A stretch of 64,000 nucleotides of DNA from a virus: the IMG/VR virus record IMGVR_UViG_3300026521_000161, positions 1 to 64,000 of that record, one strand, 5' to 3'. The translations under genes were made by a program, and so were the position numbers. Positions 9,049-59,309 of the stretch are shown in pieces (the first letter of the stretch is position 1; every line of letters begins with the position of its first letter). The notes below the pieces were generated by a model. That model had not been told where the DNA came from. It did not search any database and was given only the letters and a program-made list of their open reading frames with translations.

Positions 9049-9876
9049 TTAGTTATCTTTTAAAGCGTAGAAATACTCGACTACACATTTATATTCACTA
9101 AGATCGTCATCAGATTCCACGAAGTAATCTTTAGCACCAGCATCATCAGCAGTAGAAGGTACGATAGTGTTAATAGATTCGATAGTAATATTACCATCAT
9201 CATCTTCGCTATATACTGTAGCTTTACCACCAACGATATCGCCAGTTGGAACAAGTGAAAGAGTGATACAGTTGTTGTCATCATCGTCTAGAGTGATACC
9301 TAAACCAGAATCATATTTATAATGTGGGATAGAGTTAGATACAGCAACGATATCTGCATTAGCAGCAGCAATCTGCTCTTCTAAATCAGCTTTAATAGCA
9401 AGAACTGAAGCTTCAATTTTCTCTAATGTATTGTAGCTATCTGACGCATCACCTACTACAGCGTTAACTTTATCATTAAGTTGTGTGATAAGATCATTAA
9501 GATCTGCATCTTCGTTGTTAATAAGATCTAATAACTCTTTAAGAGTATCGTACGCTTCAGGAGCACCGTCAACCATAGCAGTTACTGCAGATGCTACCTT
9601 AGCATCGATAGAACCTTCTGTATCTTTATCACCATTAATAACAGCTAACGCATCATTAATATTAGCAATATCATTATCTTTAAGATCTTGAATAGCTGCA
9701 CCGATGTTGTCATTAAGTGTCGCATCAGCTGCTTCCATGTCATCACGTAATTTAGTGAATCTATCTGAAATATCGTTCATACTTACATTATAAGTAGAAA
9801 GATTAACTTTGTTAGCATTAAGAGCTTCAATACTAGCTGATTGATCTAAATCGGCTCTAAAAGTAATTTTACCCAT
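9049..9876 (-). CDS. Putative fibre/coiled-coil virion protein
   Basis: VDGAPEAYDTLKEL and VGDASDSYNTLEKI repeats typical of fibre proteins, heptad-rich, very acidic. Confidence 0.55.
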   Translation of the reverse strand: MGKITFRADLDQSASIEALNANKVNLSTYNVSMNDISDRFTKLRDDMEAADATLNDNIGAAIQDLKDNDIANINDALAVINGDKDTEGSIDAKVASAVTAMVDGAPEAYDTLKELLDLINNEDADLNDLITQLNDKVNAVVGDASDSYNTLEKIEASVLAIKADLEEQIAAANADIVAVSNSIPHYKYDSGLGITLDDDDNNCITLSLVPTGDIVGGKATVYSEDDDGNITIESINTIVPSTADDAGAKDYFVESDDDLSEYKCVVEYFYALKDN

Positions 9877-15737: not shown

Positions 15738-16751
15738 TTACTCCTTATCTTCTGCTAGATCTGATTCATCTACATCACTGATATTAGTTATATCTGTGAT
15801 ATATTCCTCAACACTGTTTTCCTCGTACTCGTACTCTGATTGGGTTTCAGGCACATATTCTAATTCCATACCTATAGAATTCCATAATGATGTTAATATA
15901 GTCAACCCACGTTCTCTACCATATGGCGTCACTGATCTATCTATAATAGTATCTATAGATGTTGGTGTGCCATTAGTTAATAATTTACTATACACTTCCT
16001 CATGTGACTCTATAGACGTATTAAGATCTTTTAACTCAGCTAAGAACTCTCTACCACCATAGGCAGCGAATATACGTCCCTCTGTTTCACCTTGTGTTCT
16101 AACAGGACTATTCTTAGCAGGTAACCTATATCTATCATTTTTGCTTGTAACGATAGGTATACCAAAATGATTTAATTTAGCAGAACTAGTAGTTAATACT
16201 GTATCAGCTATCTTACTTAACATAAAGATATACATAGGCGCTATCATAACTGGATCTTCCGAAGTACGCGGCCTACCATCATATGTAAATTTTACCTTAT
16301 CGTAAACTGGTTTATAAATAGATTTATCTAAATCCTTTATAATCTCATACTTACGTTTTTCATTATCGGTAGTTAGGTAAGCTCTAAATCTATCATATAT
16401 GATCTCCTCTACTACAGATAGCATAGACTCTCTATCATTATTGTGTAGTATACCGTTATAAACATCAAACATACCATTACCTAATATACCCATGAAATCC
16501 CTAGCATGCAGGAATAGATTTTTAAGCTGTACATCTGTTAACTCATATGGTTCCGTTACATTATACCTTTTATATTCGTCTCTTACAATGCGCTCTAACT
16601 TCAGCATAGATGCTTTAGTAGTAGCTTCATAAGGACCACCTATATTAAGCCTAGATATAGTAGATTTCGGATCCACTATCATCTCCGCTCTATTACCGTC
16701 TTTATCGATAGGCATCTCTTCATCAGGCCATACCGATACAATTGTACCTTT
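15738..16751 (-). CDS. nvRNAP beta C-terminal subunit (phiKZ gp71-73-like), exon 2
   Basis: In-frame KGTIVSVWPDEEMP..DG..AEMIVDP.STISRLNIG and GETEGR; starts after intron terminal G. Confidence 0.88.
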   Translation of the reverse strand, partial: KGTIVSVWPDEEMPIDKDGNRAEMIVDPKSTISRLNIGGPYEATTKASMLKLERIVRDEYKRYNVTEPYELTDVQLKNLFLHARDFMGILGNGMFDVYNGILHNNDRESMLSVVEEIIYDRFRAYLTTDNEKRKYEIIKDLDKSIYKPVYDKVKFTYDGRPRTSEDPVMIAPMYIFMLSKIADTVLTTSSAKLNHFGIPIVTSKNDRYRLPAKNSPVRTQGETEGRIFAAYGGREFLAELKDLNTSIESHEEVYSKLLTNGTPTSIDTIIDRSVTPYGRERGLTILTSLWNSIGMELEYVPETQSEYEYEENSVEEYITDITNISDVDESDLAEDKE

Positions 16752-18663
16752 CGAATATGTTCAAGTGGCTCGCTACACCACCCCGCGTCTCTAAACGCTG
16801 CTCACTCTCTCGAATGAAGACTTGGTCGATTACCAAGAATGACTTTCGTCGTCCAGACTATATCTAATCCCTTATTACTAAGGGCCGAAACATTTCCATT
16901 TAAGGGATTTTATACCCACCTGCTTAGGCCGTACTCCCTGGTGAGGGGATAGTCGTTGAGCCCACACGCTCCATATAGGATGTATCTCTACGTTTAAGGT
17001 GCTTCGCTGCGTCGGTTACCTAATCTCATAAGGTTTTTACTATGCTTAACTCTTCCATTACTGGGTTAAGTATCATAGTCTGTTTCCAGCTATGAGTAGT
17101 ACTTATGAGCTCTAAAGGCGTCCCCGTCATTAGTATCGTTCTAAGTTATAAGATTACTCCTATAACTGGCTTACATAATATTCCATTACATTAATCTATC
17201 TGTATAATCTTCAGGCTTCGCATCTCCTGGAAGATTAAGATCTTTCTTCATATCTTCAAAAGTCTGATACGACTTTCCATTATATGTGTATTTATAAAAC
17301 TCACGTAATATTTTACGTAGTTCACCTTCTATACTCTGAAACTTTGTGTTATGTAGTATATTTAATCTAACTTTCATCTTCTTAGCTATCTCTGCTTTTT
17401 GAGCATCGTTAGTCTGTACTTCTTTAAGTAGGTCATTACCGCCCCATGCCTTAATAGGAATGTAGTGTTGGTTACCATTGTACTCTATGAAGATGTTAAG
17501 TCTGTTAAGATAGAAGTCATACTTGTATTTGTAATCTTTGATACCGTATTCTCTTTCATGCTCTATACCGAATTTATTAAGAACACGCTCTATCTCTTTC
17601 TCATTCTTAGACCCAGCACATAGTAAACAACCCCTACCTCTAAGATGCTCGTTAGCAACTTGCTGGAAATCCCCATGAACAGGACACCCTATAGTTACTG
17701 TATCCAATGTTGTTCTAAATGATACTTTACTATAATCATATCTGTTGTTATGTATTTCATTAGCTTTAGATATGAACTCCGATACATCTGTCCTACGATT
17801 ATCGTTATAACATTTACTACAACCTCTACCCTCTAGATGTCCATCCAGCCTCTGCTCGAATTCACCATGTATAGGACAAATAATAGTACCCTTATGAGCA
17901 ACACTCTTGAATATAAGTTTACTATAATCGTACTTGTTGTTATGTACCTTATTAGCCCTCTCTATAAATCCATCTCTACCCATACTAGTGTTATTGGCAG
18001 CTTTATCTCTACCGCACCTAGCACAACCGAACCCTGCTAAATGACTACTAGGTAATTGTTTAAAATCACCATGGACTGGACACGTTATGATAACGTGTTT
18101 GGTAACACCTTTATAATCTGTTTTACCATAGCTATACTTTTTACCGTGTTTGGCCTCAGCTTCCCTAATAAAATCTTCAGTAGTTCTTTTAGGTCCAGCT
18201 GAACATTTAGGACATCCCTGTCCAATTAGATGCTTGTCTGGTCTCTTATCAAAATCACCGTGTATAGGACACCCTATCACAACAGCTGTTCTATTGTTAA
18301 TATAGTTAACTTTAGAATAATCATATTTATCGCCATGGATTTTACGAGCTTTAGCTACGAACTTATCTGCGTTAGATGATATACTACTATGTGCTTTCTT
18401 TTTACCGCATTCTGGACAACCACTACCCTTAAGAAAATTATTTGGTGTTGGGTAAAAGCTACCGTGGATGGGGCATATAACTTCTATGTCTTCTTTACTA
18501 CCTTTGTATACGACTTTACTGAAATCGTATTTGGTACCTAACCTTCTGGCTTTCTCTAAAAACGTTTCTGTTGTTAACGCTTTAGCCATTTCATATCCTT
18601 TTGTTTTATTTGCGAATTTGTGTTTGTAATTGGAATATCAGTCTTTACCTACCGGTAAATCAC
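16752..18663 (-). mobile_element. Group I intron (1912 nt) with homing endonuclease in P1 loop
   Basis: Splicing GGU|...G|AAA restores MGG-KGTIV. R (CAACGACUA) and S (AGAUAUAGUCU) elements present. GUAA-capped P2. Confidence 0.92.
17186..18589 (-). CDS. Intron-encoded homing endonuclease: five CPxHG...GCxxC zinc-ribbon repeats (DUF723-like) plus C-terminal PD-(D/E)xK/Vsr-like nuclease
   Basis: 5 repeats of YDYSKV..CP(I/V)HG..H..G.GC..C; YDFYL....IFIEYNGNQHY. Confidence 0.82.
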   Translation of the reverse strand: MAKALTTETFLEKARRLGTKYDFSKVVYKGSKEDIEVICPIHGSFYPTPNNFLKGSGCPECGKKKAHSSISSNADKFVAKARKIHGDKYDYSKVNYINNRTAVVIGCPIHGDFDKRPDKHLIGQGCPKCSAGPKRTTEDFIREAEAKHGKKYSYGKTDYKGVTKHVIITCPVHGDFKQLPSSHLAGFGCARCGRDKAANNTSMGRDGFIERANKVHNNKYDYSKLIFKSVAHKGTIICPIHGEFEQRLDGHLEGRGCSKCYNDNRRTDVSEFISKANEIHNNRYDYSKVSFRTTLDTVTIGCPVHGDFQQVANEHLRGRGCLLCAGSKNEKEIERVLNKFGIEHEREYGIKDYKYKYDFYLNRLNIFIEYNGNQHYIPIKAWGGNDLLKEVQTNDAQKAEIAKKMKVRLNILHNTKFQSIEGELRKILREFYKYTYNGKSYQTFEDMKKDLNLPGDAKPEDYTDRLM

Positions 18664-51804: not shown

Positions 51805-53607
51805 TTAACGTCTATATCTGTTGTATGTTGCGTGTGGCGCACTGTAGTGCTGCCTTGCAGTAGACATACCAAAACCAGTAGAACCAACTGACGCAGAAGC
51901 ATATGCAGATGCAATGTTTTGTAGGTTATTAAATTCAGAATATCCGATAGATGGATTATCAGTATCTGGAGTATAACCACCATCCATAGCACGGCTTGTT
52001 AATTCATCGATGAAAGCTCCATCTAAAACAACTCTAACTGCTCTACCAGTAATAACTGGTTTAAGGTTAAGCATTGTAGCAACTTTATCGATAACTTCAA
52101 GTTTTAGTGTATATGGATCTTTACCTGTTGATGACACACAGATGTCCTCTGGTGCATTAGAATAAATCCAATCGATTAATAAGCCAGGATCATTTGTGTG
52201 TTTAGCGATGAACACTGTGTCGATCTCTCTGATGTCTCTAGGATTAGACTCATTATCTAGGAACTCACCTAGTGGAACATACATAGTCGCAGCAGCAACT
52301 GGAATATCAGGCATTTCACTTCCAACAAGATCTGAAGCTGCATTTAAAATATCTTCTGTAGCGAAGCGTCTACTAGCTTTATCAGCTAATGCAGTAAATG
52401 GTCTTAAGTACGGATAATCAGAACCAAACTCTTCAATATCTAAAGCAAAGATAGGCTTTGGAACGATATGCTCTCTGATGATATCGTTAACGATTTCTGG
52501 GCTAGCTTTCTCATCGTTGAACGAAATTTTCTCACCATATTTACGCCCATCACCTTGGTAGTTAAATAGGAAGTTAAGCGGACCAGCATCTTTCTCTACA
52601 ATAAGATTTTTAAGTACACCACGGTTAGTAAACGTTGTAGCATTGATCATAGATAATAACGCATAGTTGATTGTAGGTGCAGCACCAATGAACTCATTAA
52701 GGATGATCATAGGTTCAGCCATACGTTTAAATTTACCTGTATATCTATCTGTATCTTCACTAATGATATACTCGATGTAACCAGCAGTAGTTGTTAACTT
52801 GTTACGACCGCCTTGACCATTTAATCTTCTTGCACTTGTATTTTTAACGATAGATACCTCAACGTTGAAGTCTGTACGTACATTACGACCTAACATGTTG
52901 ATAGAGCTACCTGAGTTAAGACCAAGATCTAAAACTAATCTACCATTTTCAGTTACAGCATCAATAGCATCTACAGTGATGTCACTCTCGATACCAGTGT
53001 CTTTTGCATAGTTAGAAACAATGATATCTTGTGCATATCTAGCGATGATTTCAGCAGTTTGCTCTAATGGAGCACCAGTAGGCATGATAACACCTTCACA
53101 GAATACTAAATCTTCCTCTTTTGTTTCCATAGCACGACATAGTACAGCTGTTGCAGCTTCGAAGAAAATATCATCAAAACCATCTGCAGTAACAAGAACA
53201 TCAGAACTGTTTTTAATGTTAAAGCTTTCAACGATTGTATGTACGTCTAAAGGAGCACGACCAGTAGCTTCTAGTAGTGTAGAGAAGTAATATGTTTTAC
53301 CGTTATCGCCTTTGTAAGCGAATACCAAGTGACTGAACTCGAAATCAAATTTGTTAAGATCCATCTTGATGAACTTGATATCAACTTTTGTATGCTTAAG
53401 TGTTTTTTGCGCTATCTCTAAAAAGCTCTCTAGAATTTCATTGTCTCCATAGTTACCGATAAGTAAACTATCTGCACCAGATAAACCAAGAACATTTAAA
53501 CTTTGTCTTTGTTGTCTTTCTCTTCTTTGTCCAGTTCTTTCAGAACCACCTCTTGTTTCATTTAGGTTTTCTAAACCTTCGTCGAAATTTACTTTTTCGA
53601 ATGCCAT
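51805..53607 (-). CDS. chmA: Chimallin, phage nuclear shell protein
   Basis: Collinear motifs matching recalled ChmA: GRNVRTD, KDAGPL, PKPIFALDI..FG, PLGEFLD....RDIREID, ITGRAVR....AFIDEL; 600 aa; strong codon bias. Confidence 0.88.
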   Translation of the reverse strand: MAFEKVNFDEGLENLNETRGGSERTGQRRERQQRQSLNVLGLSGADSLLIGNYGDNEILESFLEIAQKTLKHTKVDIKFIKMDLNKFDFEFSHLVFAYKGDNGKTYYFSTLLEATGRAPLDVHTIVESFNIKNSSDVLVTADGFDDIFFEAATAVLCRAMETKEEDLVFCEGVIMPTGAPLEQTAEIIARYAQDIIVSNYAKDTGIESDITVDAIDAVTENGRLVLDLGLNSGSSINMLGRNVRTDFNVEVSIVKNTSARRLNGQGGRNKLTTTAGYIEYIISEDTDRYTGKFKRMAEPMIILNEFIGAAPTINYALLSMINATTFTNRGVLKNLIVEKDAGPLNFLFNYQGDGRKYGEKISFNDEKASPEIVNDIIREHIVPKPIFALDIEEFGSDYPYLRPFTALADKASRRFATEDILNAASDLVGSEMPDIPVAAATMYVPLGEFLDNESNPRDIREIDTVFIAKHTNDPGLLIDWIYSNAPEDICVSSTGKDPYTLKLEVIDKVATMLNLKPVITGRAVRVVLDGAFIDELTSRAMDGGYTPDTDNPSIGYSEFNNLQNIASAYASASVGSTGFGMSTARQHYSAPHATYNRYRR

Positions 53608-53802: not shown

Positions 53803-53882
53803 GTTGTTAATTATAATTAGAATTAATAAAACATCATATATCAAGTATATTCGTTTTGTTGAAAAAAATTTAAAGGATTTTT

Positions 53883-54962: not shown

Positions 54963-55202
54963 ATGGGTGATAGTGTTAAAGGTAACGTAGGTTCATTCGT
55001 ACCAACAACTTGTCTATCAAGGGCTGGTGATGAAACAAAAGCACTTAAAATCATTAGCAATAGTGTAGATGTGTTACTTGTAGAAACTGACGTTATAGAT
55101 TTTAATAAAGAGATAGGTCTACATGAGTTCTCTCGTGGTGCTGCTAGAACATACCTAGCATTAGTAAGAGCTATAGATTATCTTAGAGTAAGAAGAAACT
55201 GA
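54963..55202 (+). CDS. Hypothetical protein
   Basis: 79-aa ORF with AGGAGG SD, coupled to next gene. Confidence 0.55.
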   Translation: MGDSVKGNVGSFVPTTCLSRAGDETKALKIISNSVDVLLVETDVIDFNKEIGLHEFSRGAARTYLALVRAIDYLRVRRN

Positions 55203-55999
55203 TGGGTGCTATAAGTTACGGTGTTTCTCGCATCATGCGGGAGATACCATCTGAAATTTTACATATGGCTTTCTTAAGAAAATCTACATATTTTAGTGTA
55301 GAAACCTCTTTAGAAAAACAGATAACAGATTTAGTTATAAAAAGTGTAGTGCTTAGGGATACCAATATAGTTGGTGGTATGACTGTCACTATACAATTAG
55401 AGAAATGTAGTTTAACGTATTACGAAAAAAATCCAACACAACACAACTTAGTTATAAAGGTACCATACCTAGCTACCAATGGTAAAAAGATATTATCCCC
55501 ATTATCACTGGTAGCTGATACAGGTGGTAGATCAGGCTATAATAGTTCAGATAACGCTATATTATCCTCTCTTAATAACAAGATGGAACATGATGCCTTC
55601 ATAGGTGAAGGTATAGCAACGTCTAACCTAGAGCTCATAGCCCCTAATACCATTTTAGTCTATGATGAAGTATCTATGGTTGTTAATGGGTATATAAAGG
55701 TACTCATAGAGAACAATGAGAAACTCTCCAACCTATCCCCTAAATCATATCTTAACTTCGGTGAGCTATGTGTATTAGCAGCTAAACAATACATATACAA
55801 TAAACTAGTTATAGATCTAGATAAAGGAGCTCTCTATAGCGGCCATGAGTTAGGTAAGATAGCAGATATCATTAACAGCTATGAATCAGCTACAGATGAA
55901 TACAACACATTCATAAAAGAAAAATGGATGAAGACGTTATTCATAAATGATAAACCAGCTATGTCTAGTTTCATCAAAGCTATGGTTAGGCCTATGTAA
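55202..55999 (+). CDS. Conserved jumbo-phage protein (possible neck/head-tail connector)
   Basis: EIPSEILHMAF, LAAKQYIYN..IDLD.G..SG.ELG motifs. Confidence 0.6.
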   Translation: MGAISYGVSRIMREIPSEILHMAFLRKSTYFSVETSLEKQITDLVIKSVVLRDTNIVGGMTVTIQLEKCSLTYYEKNPTQHNLVIKVPYLATNGKKILSPLSLVADTGGRSGYNSSDNAILSSLNNKMEHDAFIGEGIATSNLELIAPNTILVYDEVSMVVNGYIKVLIENNEKLSNLSPKSYLNFGELCVLAAKQYIYNKLVIDLDKGALYSGHELGKIADIINSYESATDEYNTFIKEKWMKTLFINDKPAMSSFIKAMVRPM

Positions 56000-56208
56000 C
56001 AAACAATAATATAACATATAGAGTAGGTATCATCCTACTCTATATATATATACATCTTTTATCTTATGTTAAGTAACATAGTTACTCTTTATTTAAGAGG
56101 TATAAGTGATATACTATATCACTCTTATATAGGTATTATTAAAACCTCCCTCCTTTAATGGTTCCCTCCTACGAGTAGAATCATCAATATATAAATCTAT
56201 CCTATATA

Positions 56209-56391
56209 TTATTTATATCTAGGTATAACTATAACTGTATCTATATGTTCAACCTCATGCCCAACATCAACAACACCCCTAACAACTACATGATCTTCAT
56301 CTACCATCTCTGTAGTTATCTTCATAACTCTACCACGCATATATAACTTACGTATAGCTTCATCCATCTCTTTTATAACACGTTCCATCAT
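56209..56391 (-). CDS. Small hypothetical protein
   Basis: 60-aa ORF with AAGGAG SD. Confidence 0.5.
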   Translation of the reverse strand: MMERVIKEMDEAIRKLYMRGRVMKITTEMVDEDHVVVRGVVDVGHEVEHIDTVIVIPRYK

Positions 56392-56489
56392 AACTCCTTA
56401 TATTATACTTCATAACAACATATATAAGAGTGATATATATATATATACTAACAACATACACATAACATACTCTTCTCTTATTTAAGAAG

Positions 56490-56800
56490 GTAAGAGTTAA
56501 CATAGTTGGTTAACTCTCATTCTCCCACACCCACCCGTAACGATGTTATCTAAGCCCTCATGATTCACTACGTTCACATGGGACTTAAACTCTCCCCCTC
56601 CTTTCCCCCACTGTTCCTAGTAGTTGCTAGGTCTTGACACATCTGCATACTTCTCTTATAACCCATCCCTTTCCAGAGACAGGTTATAAGATACTCACAT
56701 GTGTAATAAGAGTGGTCGCCATGGTCCGCATGACTAGATATCAGTGATCGCAACTTAACAGGTTATCACTATGGATGGTTTGCTAAGTGATTTAGATATG
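56490..56800 (-). ncRNA. Candidate structured non-coding RNA (unknown family)
   Basis: Several stems whose G.U pairs form only on minus strand, incl. 17-bp stem with GGAA tetraloop (56654-56691). Confidence 0.45.
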
Positions 56801-56885
56801 ATTATCTTTCTTATTATTTAAATCAATAACATATATGTAACTAAAAAATAAAATATAAATAACTAAGGACATAAGTCCCTAGCTA

Positions 56886-58514
56886 TTAAAGTTCATATGT
56901 TGTTACACCCATTCTATCTATAGTTTTAGTAACTAACTTTATATCTCCTTCTAGAGTCCTAAACAACTGTAACATATCATATATGTAATGTGTGTTTAGA
57001 TTGTTCATAAGGATATCATGTAACTGTTCTATTTGCATATTAGTTAACTCTCCAAAATACTCTATACCAGATATAATACCAGACTTAACCTTTATCTTAA
57101 CATTACTATCAACATCCCCATAAATATCATATATAACCCTAGTGTCTTCATTACTATCTAGTTTCTTAAAGAACACTGATAATAGTTCATGGGGTTTATT
57201 GTCCTCTTTTTTAAGTTTAGGTCTTAAATATGTATCTACAAGTGTATTATGTATATTATTTATACGATCTCGTAAATCATTACTATCAGGATATACCTTC
57301 TTTAATTCATCATGCACATCATGAATATCACTAACATCGCTAGTTAATGTAAAATAACTACCACTAACATCACTCATGAATCTAGCGTATAGTACATTAT
57401 CTATAATTGTGGCTTCTATTATAGAGACAGGTGTGTATTTATCCATAGCCTCAGATATCTCCTTAAAACCTTCAGTAAGTATACTAGTGTATTTTCCTAA
57501 TGGATAATTGGCATCAAGACTATCGCTTGTATCGTTACTCATATGTACCTCTTTAGCATAAATTATAGCCTTACACATCATATCTTTATCAACACCATCT
57601 GTTAAGTCAGAGATATCTGTAGATAATACATACTTCTTACTATAAGATTCATATACTATAGTTAATGTGTTTTCATGTTCCATTATATCATTAACCGTAA
57701 TACTACCACAACACACCGTATCCAACATATCACCAACAGCATCAGATATAGAGACATTAAGTTCTACCTCACCAACTGTCGGGTAGCCTTTGTTAAGTAG
57801 ATACGCCTGCTCTATAAGTAAGAATAAATAATTTATAGTTAAATCATCTATATCTCTGATATCTATAGTATATTCTAGTTTAACTATCTCACCGATGTAT
57901 TTATTTAATTCTATTTCCAATATACCGTGGTTACATAACGCACCATTTACATATTTAAATATACCATCAGTATGTTCTAGATTAATATCTCTAAGAATGC
58001 TGTTAGCTTTTTCATTTGCTTTAATATGGACTATAGCATCACATGTATTTAATGCGATATTATATTTTATGGTATCAGCATCTATGATGTTGCTTAGATT
58101 CCCGAATAGCTCGTTATCTATTTCAGTAACAGATATGAACTTACTATCCTTAGTCTGTACATCTAAAACAATAACCGTACGAGCAATCTTCACTACTACT
58201 ATATCAGCAATGCCTTCACTAATATTTTGTCTAAACTCATCTGTAAGGATCCTACTAACTATATTATCATTAAGTGTTTTAGAGACAATCAGCTCTAATG
58301 TATCATCCTCTTCCGATTCTAAATCACCTATAAGATATTTATAGCTTTCATAATCCGTAACAGACATCGCTTTTATGAAACTTAATGTATTTAAAGTTAT
58401 GTTAACTTCTGTTAATGTTATAGATGTTATTCTATAAGGTACCTCATTCTCTGTTAATAAATCAACAACCTCTTTATAAGATCTGAAAAAATCCGAAACG
58501 TTTCTAGTTACCAT
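56886..58514 (-). CDS. Acidic hypothetical protein, putative early gene
   Basis: 542-aa ORF, AAGGAG SD, early-type promoter at 58564-58573, terminator-like hairpin at end. Confidence 0.65.
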   Translation of the reverse strand: MVTRNVSDFFRSYKEVVDLLTENEVPYRITSITLTEVNITLNTLSFIKAMSVTDYESYKYLIGDLESEEDDTLELIVSKTLNDNIVSRILTDEFRQNISEGIADIVVVKIARTVIVLDVQTKDSKFISVTEIDNELFGNLSNIIDADTIKYNIALNTCDAIVHIKANEKANSILRDINLEHTDGIFKYVNGALCNHGILEIELNKYIGEIVKLEYTIDIRDIDDLTINYLFLLIEQAYLLNKGYPTVGEVELNVSISDAVGDMLDTVCCGSITVNDIMEHENTLTIVYESYSKKYVLSTDISDLTDGVDKDMMCKAIIYAKEVHMSNDTSDSLDANYPLGKYTSILTEGFKEISEAMDKYTPVSIIEATIIDNVLYARFMSDVSGSYFTLTSDVSDIHDVHDELKKVYPDSNDLRDRINNIHNTLVDTYLRPKLKKEDNKPHELLSVFFKKLDSNEDTRVIYDIYGDVDSNVKIKVKSGIISGIEYFGELTNMQIEQLHDILMNNLNTHYIYDMLQLFRTLEGDIKLVTKTIDRMGVTTYEL

Positions 58515-58799: not shown

Positions 58800-59200
58800 T
58801 ACTAGTAAGTAACTACGTAGTTATTAGGTATATGATACATATATACTATATAGTAATATTTATACATATAGCTGTATATACTGTATATTATACACCTTAT
58901 ATAGGTATATACATACTATATTTAACTTATATATACCTATACTAGATAGTGTAGTTGTTATTTTTATCAACTACACTATTAATTGAGTATTATTATTATA
59001 GAGCTATAAAGGGGACTTTGTCCCCTTTATAGCGATATATAGTAAGTGAGTGTAGCTCTGTGCTGCTCTGTTTCTTTTATCCGCTCACGTTTCGCCTTTG
59101 GGGGCTACACGACCGCTCCGATTAGTCCTCTCCCCCCAGAAAATGTCTGGGTCATGGATCGAGGTTGTGACTTTATTATGGTCACAGTTGTCATCGTTAG
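58800..59200. other. Non-coding hairpin/palindrome cluster between divergent genes
   Basis: Perfect 14-bp IR 59003-59033, IR 58947-58978, palindrome TAACTACGTAGTTA, GC-rich island, TA-rich low-complexity flank. Confidence 0.5.
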
Positions 59201-59309
59201 ATAATTAATTATTTTAATCAATATATAAATATTTATCTATTATTAGATATTTACTAATTACAGGTATACCATTAGTTAGAATGAATATAGACAGTTAAAG
59301 GAAACAATA

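Follow-up and report, generated by a model that had tools for sequence, protein, structure and literature searches.

A candidate structured non-coding RNA with compensatory base-pair changes in a divergent nucleus-forming jumbo phage

Introduction

The GOLLD and ROOL RNAs are large, 'ornate' non-coding RNAs, often borne by phages or prophages, whose function is unknown. The candidate element described here lies in the first 64 kb (the window, i.e. the whole stretch of DNA analysed) of the 106-kb IMG/VR virus record IMGVR_UViG_3300026521_000161. It resembles GOLLD and ROOL in that it would be a large, phage-borne non-coding RNA with many helices, independent of its neighbours and GC-enriched with respect to the genome. 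It differs from them in its length (about 300 nt, against roughly 580–800 nt), in matching no Rfam model and in lying in a window where no tRNA genes were found.

With the pRNA of phage phi29 the element shares a phage origin, a putative promoter of its own, a three-way junction and hairpin loops conserved in sequence, and these loops could, by analogy, mediate RNA-RNA or RNA-protein contacts. The loops of pRNA, however, are mutually complementary, whereas the two loops of the element are identical (CAACUA); the element also has no Rfam match and is dispensable among relatives. Chimalliviruses, to which the source phage is assigned below, package with a terminase, and we know of no RNA in that process.

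Among RNAs that prime replication, ColE1 RNA II, the T4 oriF/oriG transcripts and mitochondrial CSB II are comparable, and primers of the RNA II type need a conserved fold. Like ColE1 RNA II and T4 oriF/oriG, the element combines a putative promoter with a structured G-rich transcript followed by AT-rich DNA; unlike them, it has no conserved position among relatives, and the AT tract that follows it is not kept. Group I introns of jumbo phages are of similar size (300–470 nt) and GC enrichment, and one is present in the same genome, but the element fails the Rfam model, has no exons and shows another helix topology. As proposed here, the element would also be like CsrB/RsmZ and 6S RNA, as a folded RNA showing repeated motifs to a protein. 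Unlike in CsrB/RsmZ, its GGA motifs are no more frequent than base composition gives (a rough estimate by eye), and unlike 6S RNA it has no rod with a central bubble and no Rfam match.

Results

Source genome and locus

The phage is uncultured and known from metagenomes. Judged by its gene content, the source genome (GC content of the contig 31.7%) is that of a divergent, AT-rich chimallivirus, a nucleus-forming jumbo phage far from the cultured ones. The assignment to the nucleus-forming jumbo phages is made because of the gene for chimallin, the nuclear shell protein (PHROG match, phrog_4795), together with a group I intron in an RNAP beta-like gene and an SNF2 helicase with Hint-domain inserts on the same contig. 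No close relative of the chimallin was found in IMG/VR, and its identity to that of Ralstonia RP12/RP31 is only 27%. The features of the window that are needed below are as follows.

16716–17185, minus strand: group I intron splitting the RNAP beta-like gene (Rfam match 16839–17189)
51805–53607: chimallin gene
55202–55999: gene of a DUF7484 protein, the next gene beyond the 60-aa ORF
56209–56391, minus strand: 60-aa ORF with a strong RBS, downstream of the RNA element
56491–56832, minus strand: conserved unit, consisting of a 42-nt AT-rich block and then the fold
56574–56753, minus strand: 59-aa TTG ORF overlapping the core of the fold
56858–56887, minus strand: intrinsic terminator (hairpin plus T-run) of the 542-aa gene, from a terminator scan
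56886–58514, minus strand: 542-aa ORF, upstream of the RNA element
58997–59222, minus strand: module 2, a second GC-rich, structured, non-coding stretch, upstream of the 542-aa gene

The intron scores 34.6 bits against Rfam RF00028 (E 6e-7) and contains the AGAUAUAGUC P7 motif; since the gathering score of this model is 50, the intron is missed by standard gathering-threshold scans. The downstream exon of the RNAP beta-like gene opens with a motif of the ..EEMPIDKDG.. type. Searches of 5.8 billion clustered proteins and of 1.84 billion representatives gave no relative of the 542-aa ORF, and Pfam, PHROG and PADLOC gave no match to it; the ESM Atlas yielded nothing usable for it, and its ESM model is of low confidence.

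Homologue and limits of the conserved unit

Metagenomic relatives of the DUF7484 protein (56–76% identity) were aligned, and a scan of JGI metagenomes with the alignment gave four loci, L005–L008. One of them, L006 (contig Ga0256828_1001568), contains a homologue of the element at 9232–9604, which is 75% identical (E 5e-69). No homologue came from a BLASTN search of 50,697 phage records with the region, or when IMG/VR was scanned for exact matches to four blocks, either invariant or spanning a whole stem. A lone match in Salinibacter, from two pattern scans of GTDB, was rejected as chance, as the covariance model built from the two sequences (R1) had no match on it.

Upstream of position 56832 the identity between the window and L006 is 57%; it reaches 95% (40/42) in the block 56791–56832, is 71% (gaps counted) in the core, and falls to 55% downstream of 56491. 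The first-pass annotation had placed the element at 56400–56885, and it does lie inside this range, although the unit that is conserved is narrower (56491–56832). Conservation begins abruptly past the upstream terminator, which divides the 542-aa gene from the RNA unit, and ends just past the last hairpin, H11. In L006 a hairpin with a T-run, of other sequence, stands at the equivalent place upstream of the block. The flanking proteins of the two phages are unrelated, and a same-strand gene follows the RNA after 100–130 nt in both. The terminator scan revealed no hairpin with a T-run 3' of H11 in either phage; the 3' end is therefore uncertain, and transcription may run on into the next gene, as would fit a leader or a processed co-transcript.

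Between the element and the DUF7484 gene, a 20-nt inverted repeat (95% complementary, 56115–56134 and 56418–56437) brackets the 60-aa ORF. Its core, TATATCACTCTTATATA, is found at these two places only. In a minus-strand transcript the repeat would make a long-range stem around the whole 60-aa ORF and might then serve for processing of the RNase III type; alternatively, it might mark the edge of a cassette. A (TA)9 tract lies 3' of the element at about 56437–56455; neither the (TA)n tract nor the downstream flank is kept in L006.

Architecture of the fold

The predicted fold, read 5' to 3' along the minus strand, consists of the following parts.

56791–56832, minus strand: AT-rich block of 42 nt, holding a 15-mer, ATTGATTTAAATAAT, common to module 2
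56753–56788, minus strand: hairpin A (H1 and H2), in which the sequence varies and the pairing is kept
56735–56752, minus strand: invariant junction containing GCGAUCACUGAUAUCUAG
56718–56734, minus strand: hairpin H4 (GUCAUG/CAUGGC)
56607–56715, minus strand: three-way junction domain, closed by the invariant helix H5 (CCACU/AGUGG) and enclosing the long arm and H8
56638–56703, minus strand: long arm, with H6 (ACACAU/AUGUGU), an AGUA / GAAG internal loop, the 17-bp H7 and a GGAA tetraloop
56616–56631, minus strand: hairpin H8 (CCUAG/CUAGG) with an invariant CAACUA loop
56591–56609, minus strand: G-rich single-stranded linker 1 (GGGGGAAAGGAGGGGGAGAG)
56545–56590, minus strand: hairpin H9/H10 (AAGUCCC../..GGGCUU), with an 18-nt tip that is absent from L006 and a paired base
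56518–56535, minus strand: G-rich tract 2 (GGGUGGGUGUGGGAGAAUG), nearly invariant
56493–56517, minus strand: 3' hairpin H11 (AGAGUUAAC/GUUAACUCU) with the loop CAACUAU, fully invariant

Several of these helices had been proposed from the single sequence in the first-pass annotation. The 17-bp stem with its GGAA loop and three G.U pairs is present at 56654–56691 (tetraloop at 56671–56674), and its ACACAU/AUGUGU extension, the CCACU/AGUGG closing helix, the CCUAG/CUAGG side arm and the stems AAGUCCCAUG../..CAUGAGGGCUU and GAGAGUUAAC/GUUAACUCU are all present as well. The G-rich tracts, including GGGGGAGAG and GGGTGGG, are present as described, and so is the GC-enriched core (45–48%, compared with 31.7% for the contig).

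In the model the junction at 56735–56752 may pair with the G-tract at 56518–56532, forming a tentative helix H3 of 12 pairs, none of which varies and which is therefore without covariation; an alternative partner for the junction is also predicted. The upper 13 base pairs of H7, its loop and its three G.U pairs are invariant, as is the AGUA / GAAG internal loop of the long arm, whose AGUA/GAA part we take to resemble the loop E / sarcin-ricin motif. The loops of H8 and H11 both read CAACUA.

The G-tracts do not form the canonical G-quadruplex pattern (four runs of G≥3 with loops of 1–7 nt): tract 2 has three G3 runs and tract 1 two G5 runs and a GG, and a fourth run needs a loop of 14–22 nt. 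In linker 1 the G-runs are kept in L006 and the SD-like GGAGG is not; a reading of AAGGAGG as a Shine-Dalgarno sequence or ribosome decoy was rejected, since L006 has AAGUAGG there. RNase P-like P4 strings (AAGUCC../..GGCUUA) were likewise discarded, being unconserved in L006 and without Rfam support, and a hammerhead-like CUGAUAU, read from the sequence, does not fit the core consensus.

Folding energy, strand and coding potential

The minus strand of 56470–56790 folds with –103.6 kcal/mol, compared with –81.0 ± 5.1 kcal/mol for dinucleotide shuffles (z –4.46; 0/100 shuffles as good), whereas the same test of the plus strand yields z –1.10. When the whole contig was scanned, crudely and with regression on GC content, the element had z –2.4 and ranked among the better minus-strand windows, others being more extreme, so that fold energy alone would have been inconclusive. 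The strand preference is also seen in the RNAalifold consensus, which has –75 kcal/mol and 83 pairs on the minus strand and –44 kcal/mol and 59 pairs for the reverse complement. The minus-strand fold contains 11–13 G.U pairs per sequence (6–8 outside the tentative helix H3), some of them newly arisen in L006 at covarying positions. G.U pairs would become C.A mismatches on the opposite strand, and their being kept or newly created in L006 speaks against a single-stranded DNA signal, which the first-pass annotation had offered as one possibility. The GC skew of the plus strand is –0.4 to –0.5, meaning that a transcript would be G-rich, and the G-rich strings GGGGGAGAG and GGGTGGG are almost unique within the 106-kb contig.

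The stretch had been described as free of ORFs. Strictly it is not, as the 59-aa TTG ORF and a 47-aa ORF overlap it, but the 59-aa frame is broken by four stops in L006 and the substitutions in it are almost all non-synonymous. By this comparison, the 59-aa ORF is not conserved and the element is non-coding in that frame.

Covariation

In the RNAalifold structure of the window and L006 sequences, 14 of the 83 pairs have both bases exchanged and 6 only one (to or from wobble pairs), and none is broken, although 34 substitutions fall in paired columns. In a control in which the 3' partners were slid by 1–3 columns, only 0–1 such pairs were obtained, and 33–49% of the cells paired. Because the RNAalifold structure is optimised on the alignment, the test was repeated with the minimum free energy structure of the window sequence only. 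Here 24 changed pairs are kept in L006 (9 of them changed on both sides) and 14 are broken, while random relocation of the substitutions expects 9 kept and 32 broken, with 0/2000 trials giving fewer than 19 broken pairs (p<1/2000). The 14 broken pairs should lie mostly inside the long-range CCAUCC/GGGUGG helix of the single-sequence fold, which on inspection of the alignment is unpaired in L006 and which the consensus replaces by a covarying 5' hairpin.

Compensatory changes are present in H1, H2, H4, H6, H7, H8 and H9. One pair of H1 is changed on both sides and three on one side; in H2 all three pairs (3/3), and in H8 two of five, are changed on both sides. H4 shows one compensatory change (C-G to U-A) and a loop whose sequence is free to vary. 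The long arm contributes four compensatory pairs in H6 and, at the base of H7, two compensatory and two wobble changes. The 18-nt deletion in L006 takes out just the tip of hairpin H10. H3, H5 and H11 are invariant and thus show no covariation, and with two sequences known the covariation rests on a single comparison. Within that comparison, the compensatory changes exceed chance, which supports a real, strand-specific RNA fold of the minus strand, maintained by compensatory substitutions under selection.

Comparison with known families

None of the 4227 models of Rfam 15 matched anywhere in the window at the gathering score, and at E≤10, with lax filters and small search spaces, none matched the element in the window or in L006. 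As a positive control, the same library detected the true group I intron of the contig at E 6e-7. The first-pass annotation had called for such a scan and had set the element apart from group I RNA, and the result agrees: RF00028 finds the RNAP intron and nothing in the element at E≤10. No P3-P8/P7 core was matched in the element, and no flanking exons join into one frame around it.

The neighbouring ORFs of both phages carry no reverse transcriptase or other Pfam, PHROG or PADLOC domain, as a retron msr/msd would call for, and none of them matched a defence system; nor was there an OrfB, RuvC or HNH match in the 542-, 60-, 425- and 310-aa neighbours that would suggest an omega-RNA or reRNA of IscB-TnpB. 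On balance, the two sequences would form a new family with two members so far, new with respect to Rfam 15, the candidates of Fremin et al. (2023), reportedly 10,006 RNAs, standing outside the comparison. The excess folding of the minus strand only, the compensatory changes in L006 and the empty Rfam search together bear out the proposal of a novel strand-specific structured RNA made from the single sequence. Two results that the first-pass annotation had named as counting against it, a lack of covarying homologues and a folding energy no better than that of shuffles, are both contradicted.

Distribution among relatives

The gene orders following DUF7484 on the minus strand are given below.

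Window: 60-aa ORF, RNA, 542-aa ORFan
L006: 425-aa ORF, RNA, 29-aa hydrophobic ORF, MYG1-like 310-aa gene
L007: MYG1-like gene only

The RNA is thus missing from the corresponding slot in L007. Model R1 matched only its two training sequences, with no match in G001, G002, G003, L005, L007 or L008. In the 186-kb relative G003 (L008/L010), DUF7484 is directly followed by homologues of window 62445–66327; its SNF2 helicase (727 aa, without a Hint insert) is sited elsewhere, about 90 kb away, and no RNA lies beside it. From this arrangement it follows that the window segment with the 60-aa ORF, the RNA, the 542-aa ORFan, module 2 and the SNF2 helicase was inserted or rearranged. As the order differs among relatives, the RNA is the only shared element of a swap-prone region.

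The 29-aa hydrophobic mini-ORF of L006 (9634–9723, minus strand) has its own RBS and lies just upstream of the RNA. The MYG1/UPF0160-like gene (a DHH-type exonuclease family), found at 9844–10776 in L006, at 1675–2568 in L007 and also in G003, is unusual for a phage.

Promoters and module 2

The 42-nt AT-rich block probably serves as a promoter, as an unpaired 5' segment of the RNA, or as both. It is promoter-like in size and position and, except for its shared 15-mer, unique in the contig. It differs from the major promoter-like motif of the genome, TATATTATTAATATAGTAC-N5-GTACTAA, which lies about 45 nt upstream of start codons in about 16 copies, all on the minus strand of the contig (e.g. 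at window positions 53803, 58574, 24879, 19927 and 2794). This motif probably represents the early promoters of the lineage (virion RNAP class). It precedes chimallin and the 542-aa ORFan, and the two promoter-bearing neighbours of the element in its variable region have this chimallin-type, probably early promoter. L006 carries the motif as well (9150–9185), as the consensus promoter of its 425-aa gene, between the RNA and the ATG. In the relative G003, the promoter-like 13-mer occurs at background level and inside genes only.

Module 2 opens with the same 15-mer as the AT-rich block (ATTGATTWAAATAAT, ATTGATTAAAATAAT), although the distance from it to the next motif in common differs, and also contains the 9-mer GGGGGAGAG; in the 106-kb contig, the 15-mer ATTGATTWAAATAAT and the 9-mer occur in the two modules only. 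Its folding z scores (about –5.3 and –5.5 on its two strands) are largely due to a perfect 14-bp hairpin at 58997–59039. It matched neither Rfam nor model R1, and by that model it is not of the same family as the RNA element.

Discussion

We lean towards reading 56491–56832 (minus strand) as a self-contained gene for a free-standing, trans-acting, structured non-coding RNA of about 300–340 nt, belonging to the new two-member family. The AT-rich block would be the promoter of the RNA itself, with transcription starting near 56791–56800. As a folded, trans-acting molecule, the RNA would then bind a partner, either protein or RNA, and serve as its scaffold or decoy. Contacts would probably be made by the parts that are invariant in sequence and not just in pairing, namely the tip of the GGAA arm, the AGUA/GAA-type internal loop, the two CAACUA loops and the G-rich linkers.

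The main rival arises because no terminator follows the RNA: the fold may be a cis-acting leader or processing element, forming the 5' part of a transcript into the downstream gene and governing how stable that gene's message is and how it is translated or processed; it might be a riboswitch-like sensor, a 5' stabiliser or an RNA cut off at the inverted repeat around the 60-aa ORF. The missing T-run terminator and the close same-strand gene, both common to the two phages, agree with it, and in the window there is no copy of the major promoter motif ahead of the 60-aa ORF, which the 20-nt repeat encloses. We nevertheless consider it unlikely. The two downstream genes (60-aa and 425-aa) are unrelated, which is unusual for a shared cis-regulator, conservation stops past H11, short of the RBS, and no riboswitch or leader family in Rfam matches. 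In L006, moreover, the 425-aa gene has its own promoter downstream of the RNA, which argues that the RNA is not simply the leader of that gene.

The first-pass annotation had offered a replication primer or R-loop, a protein sponge and a nucleus-associated RNA as candidate roles. Improbable, in our view, is a transcription-primed replication origin, in which a G-rich transcript would hold a persistent R-loop on the C-rich template beside an AT-rich unwinding tract, module 2 being a second such unit. The skewed composition and the nearly unique G-runs of the transcript, the (TA)9 tract that follows and the co-oriented module 2, which shares the 15-mer and GGGGGAGAG, would suit this explanation, as would the conserved fold, which primer RNAs such as RNA II also require. 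Against it speak the absence of the element from the L007 slot, the lack of a match in the 186-kb G003 and the unconserved AT tract (55% identity in the downstream flank of L006); the position is thus not a conserved one with an unwinding element. The G-tracts also fail the four-run quadruplex pattern with short loops, and no iterons or replication-initiator genes adjoin the element.

A ribozyme or a relic of a mobile RNA element is very unlikely, whether as a self-splicing intron that is degenerate or lacks an ORF, or as a self-cleaving motif of a new kind. The genome does harbour several group I introns and inteins, among them the RNAP beta intron (16716–17185) and the Hint-domain inserts of the helicase, the element lies in a variable region, and its GNRA-capped long arm and multi-helix junction are of the kind found in large ribozymes. 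No group I, group II or small-ribozyme model of Rfam, however, matches at E≤10, and the helix order, with a side arm and a long arm within one closing helix, departs from P3-P9 of group I. Each flanking ORF is a gene in its own right, with its own terminator or RBS, and is unrelated between the phages, so there are no exons to join.

That there is no functional RNA, and the stretch is GC-rich by chance or encodes a small protein, is scarcely credible: the overlapping 59-aa TTG ORF and the GC-regressed score (z –2.4, not the most extreme of the contig) would allow it, but that ORF stops in L006 with almost only non-synonymous substitutions, no pair is broken by the 34 substitutions in paired columns, and conservation is sharply bounded.

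For the free-standing RNA that we prefer, an accessory role in host takeover or anti-defence is the most plausible one, because relatives can do without the RNA and it is surrounded by ORFan genes with early-type promoters. More tentatively, and with the odds rather against it, the element may be the founding member of a new class of large, intricately folded RNAs of nucleus-forming phages, transcribed from a dedicated promoter, perhaps common to module 2, within the variable region and next to ORFan genes with the chimallin-type promoter. Such an RNA would engage a factor of host defence or takeover, either as its decoy or as its scaffold, or would do so in phage RNA handling at the nuclear shell.

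The non-coding RNAs of chimalliviruses are, to our knowledge, almost unexplored, and a multi-helix RNA of 300 nt, held by selection and outside every curated family, would offer a concrete handle on them. The element is short enough to be synthesised, probed by SHAPE or cryo-EM and used as bait for its partner. Host takeover or counter-defence is suggested by its setting, a swap-prone region with ORFan genes that have early-type promoters. Few RNA effectors are known in these processes, and if the suggestion is true, such an RNA would be an accessory weapon based on RNA rather than on protein.
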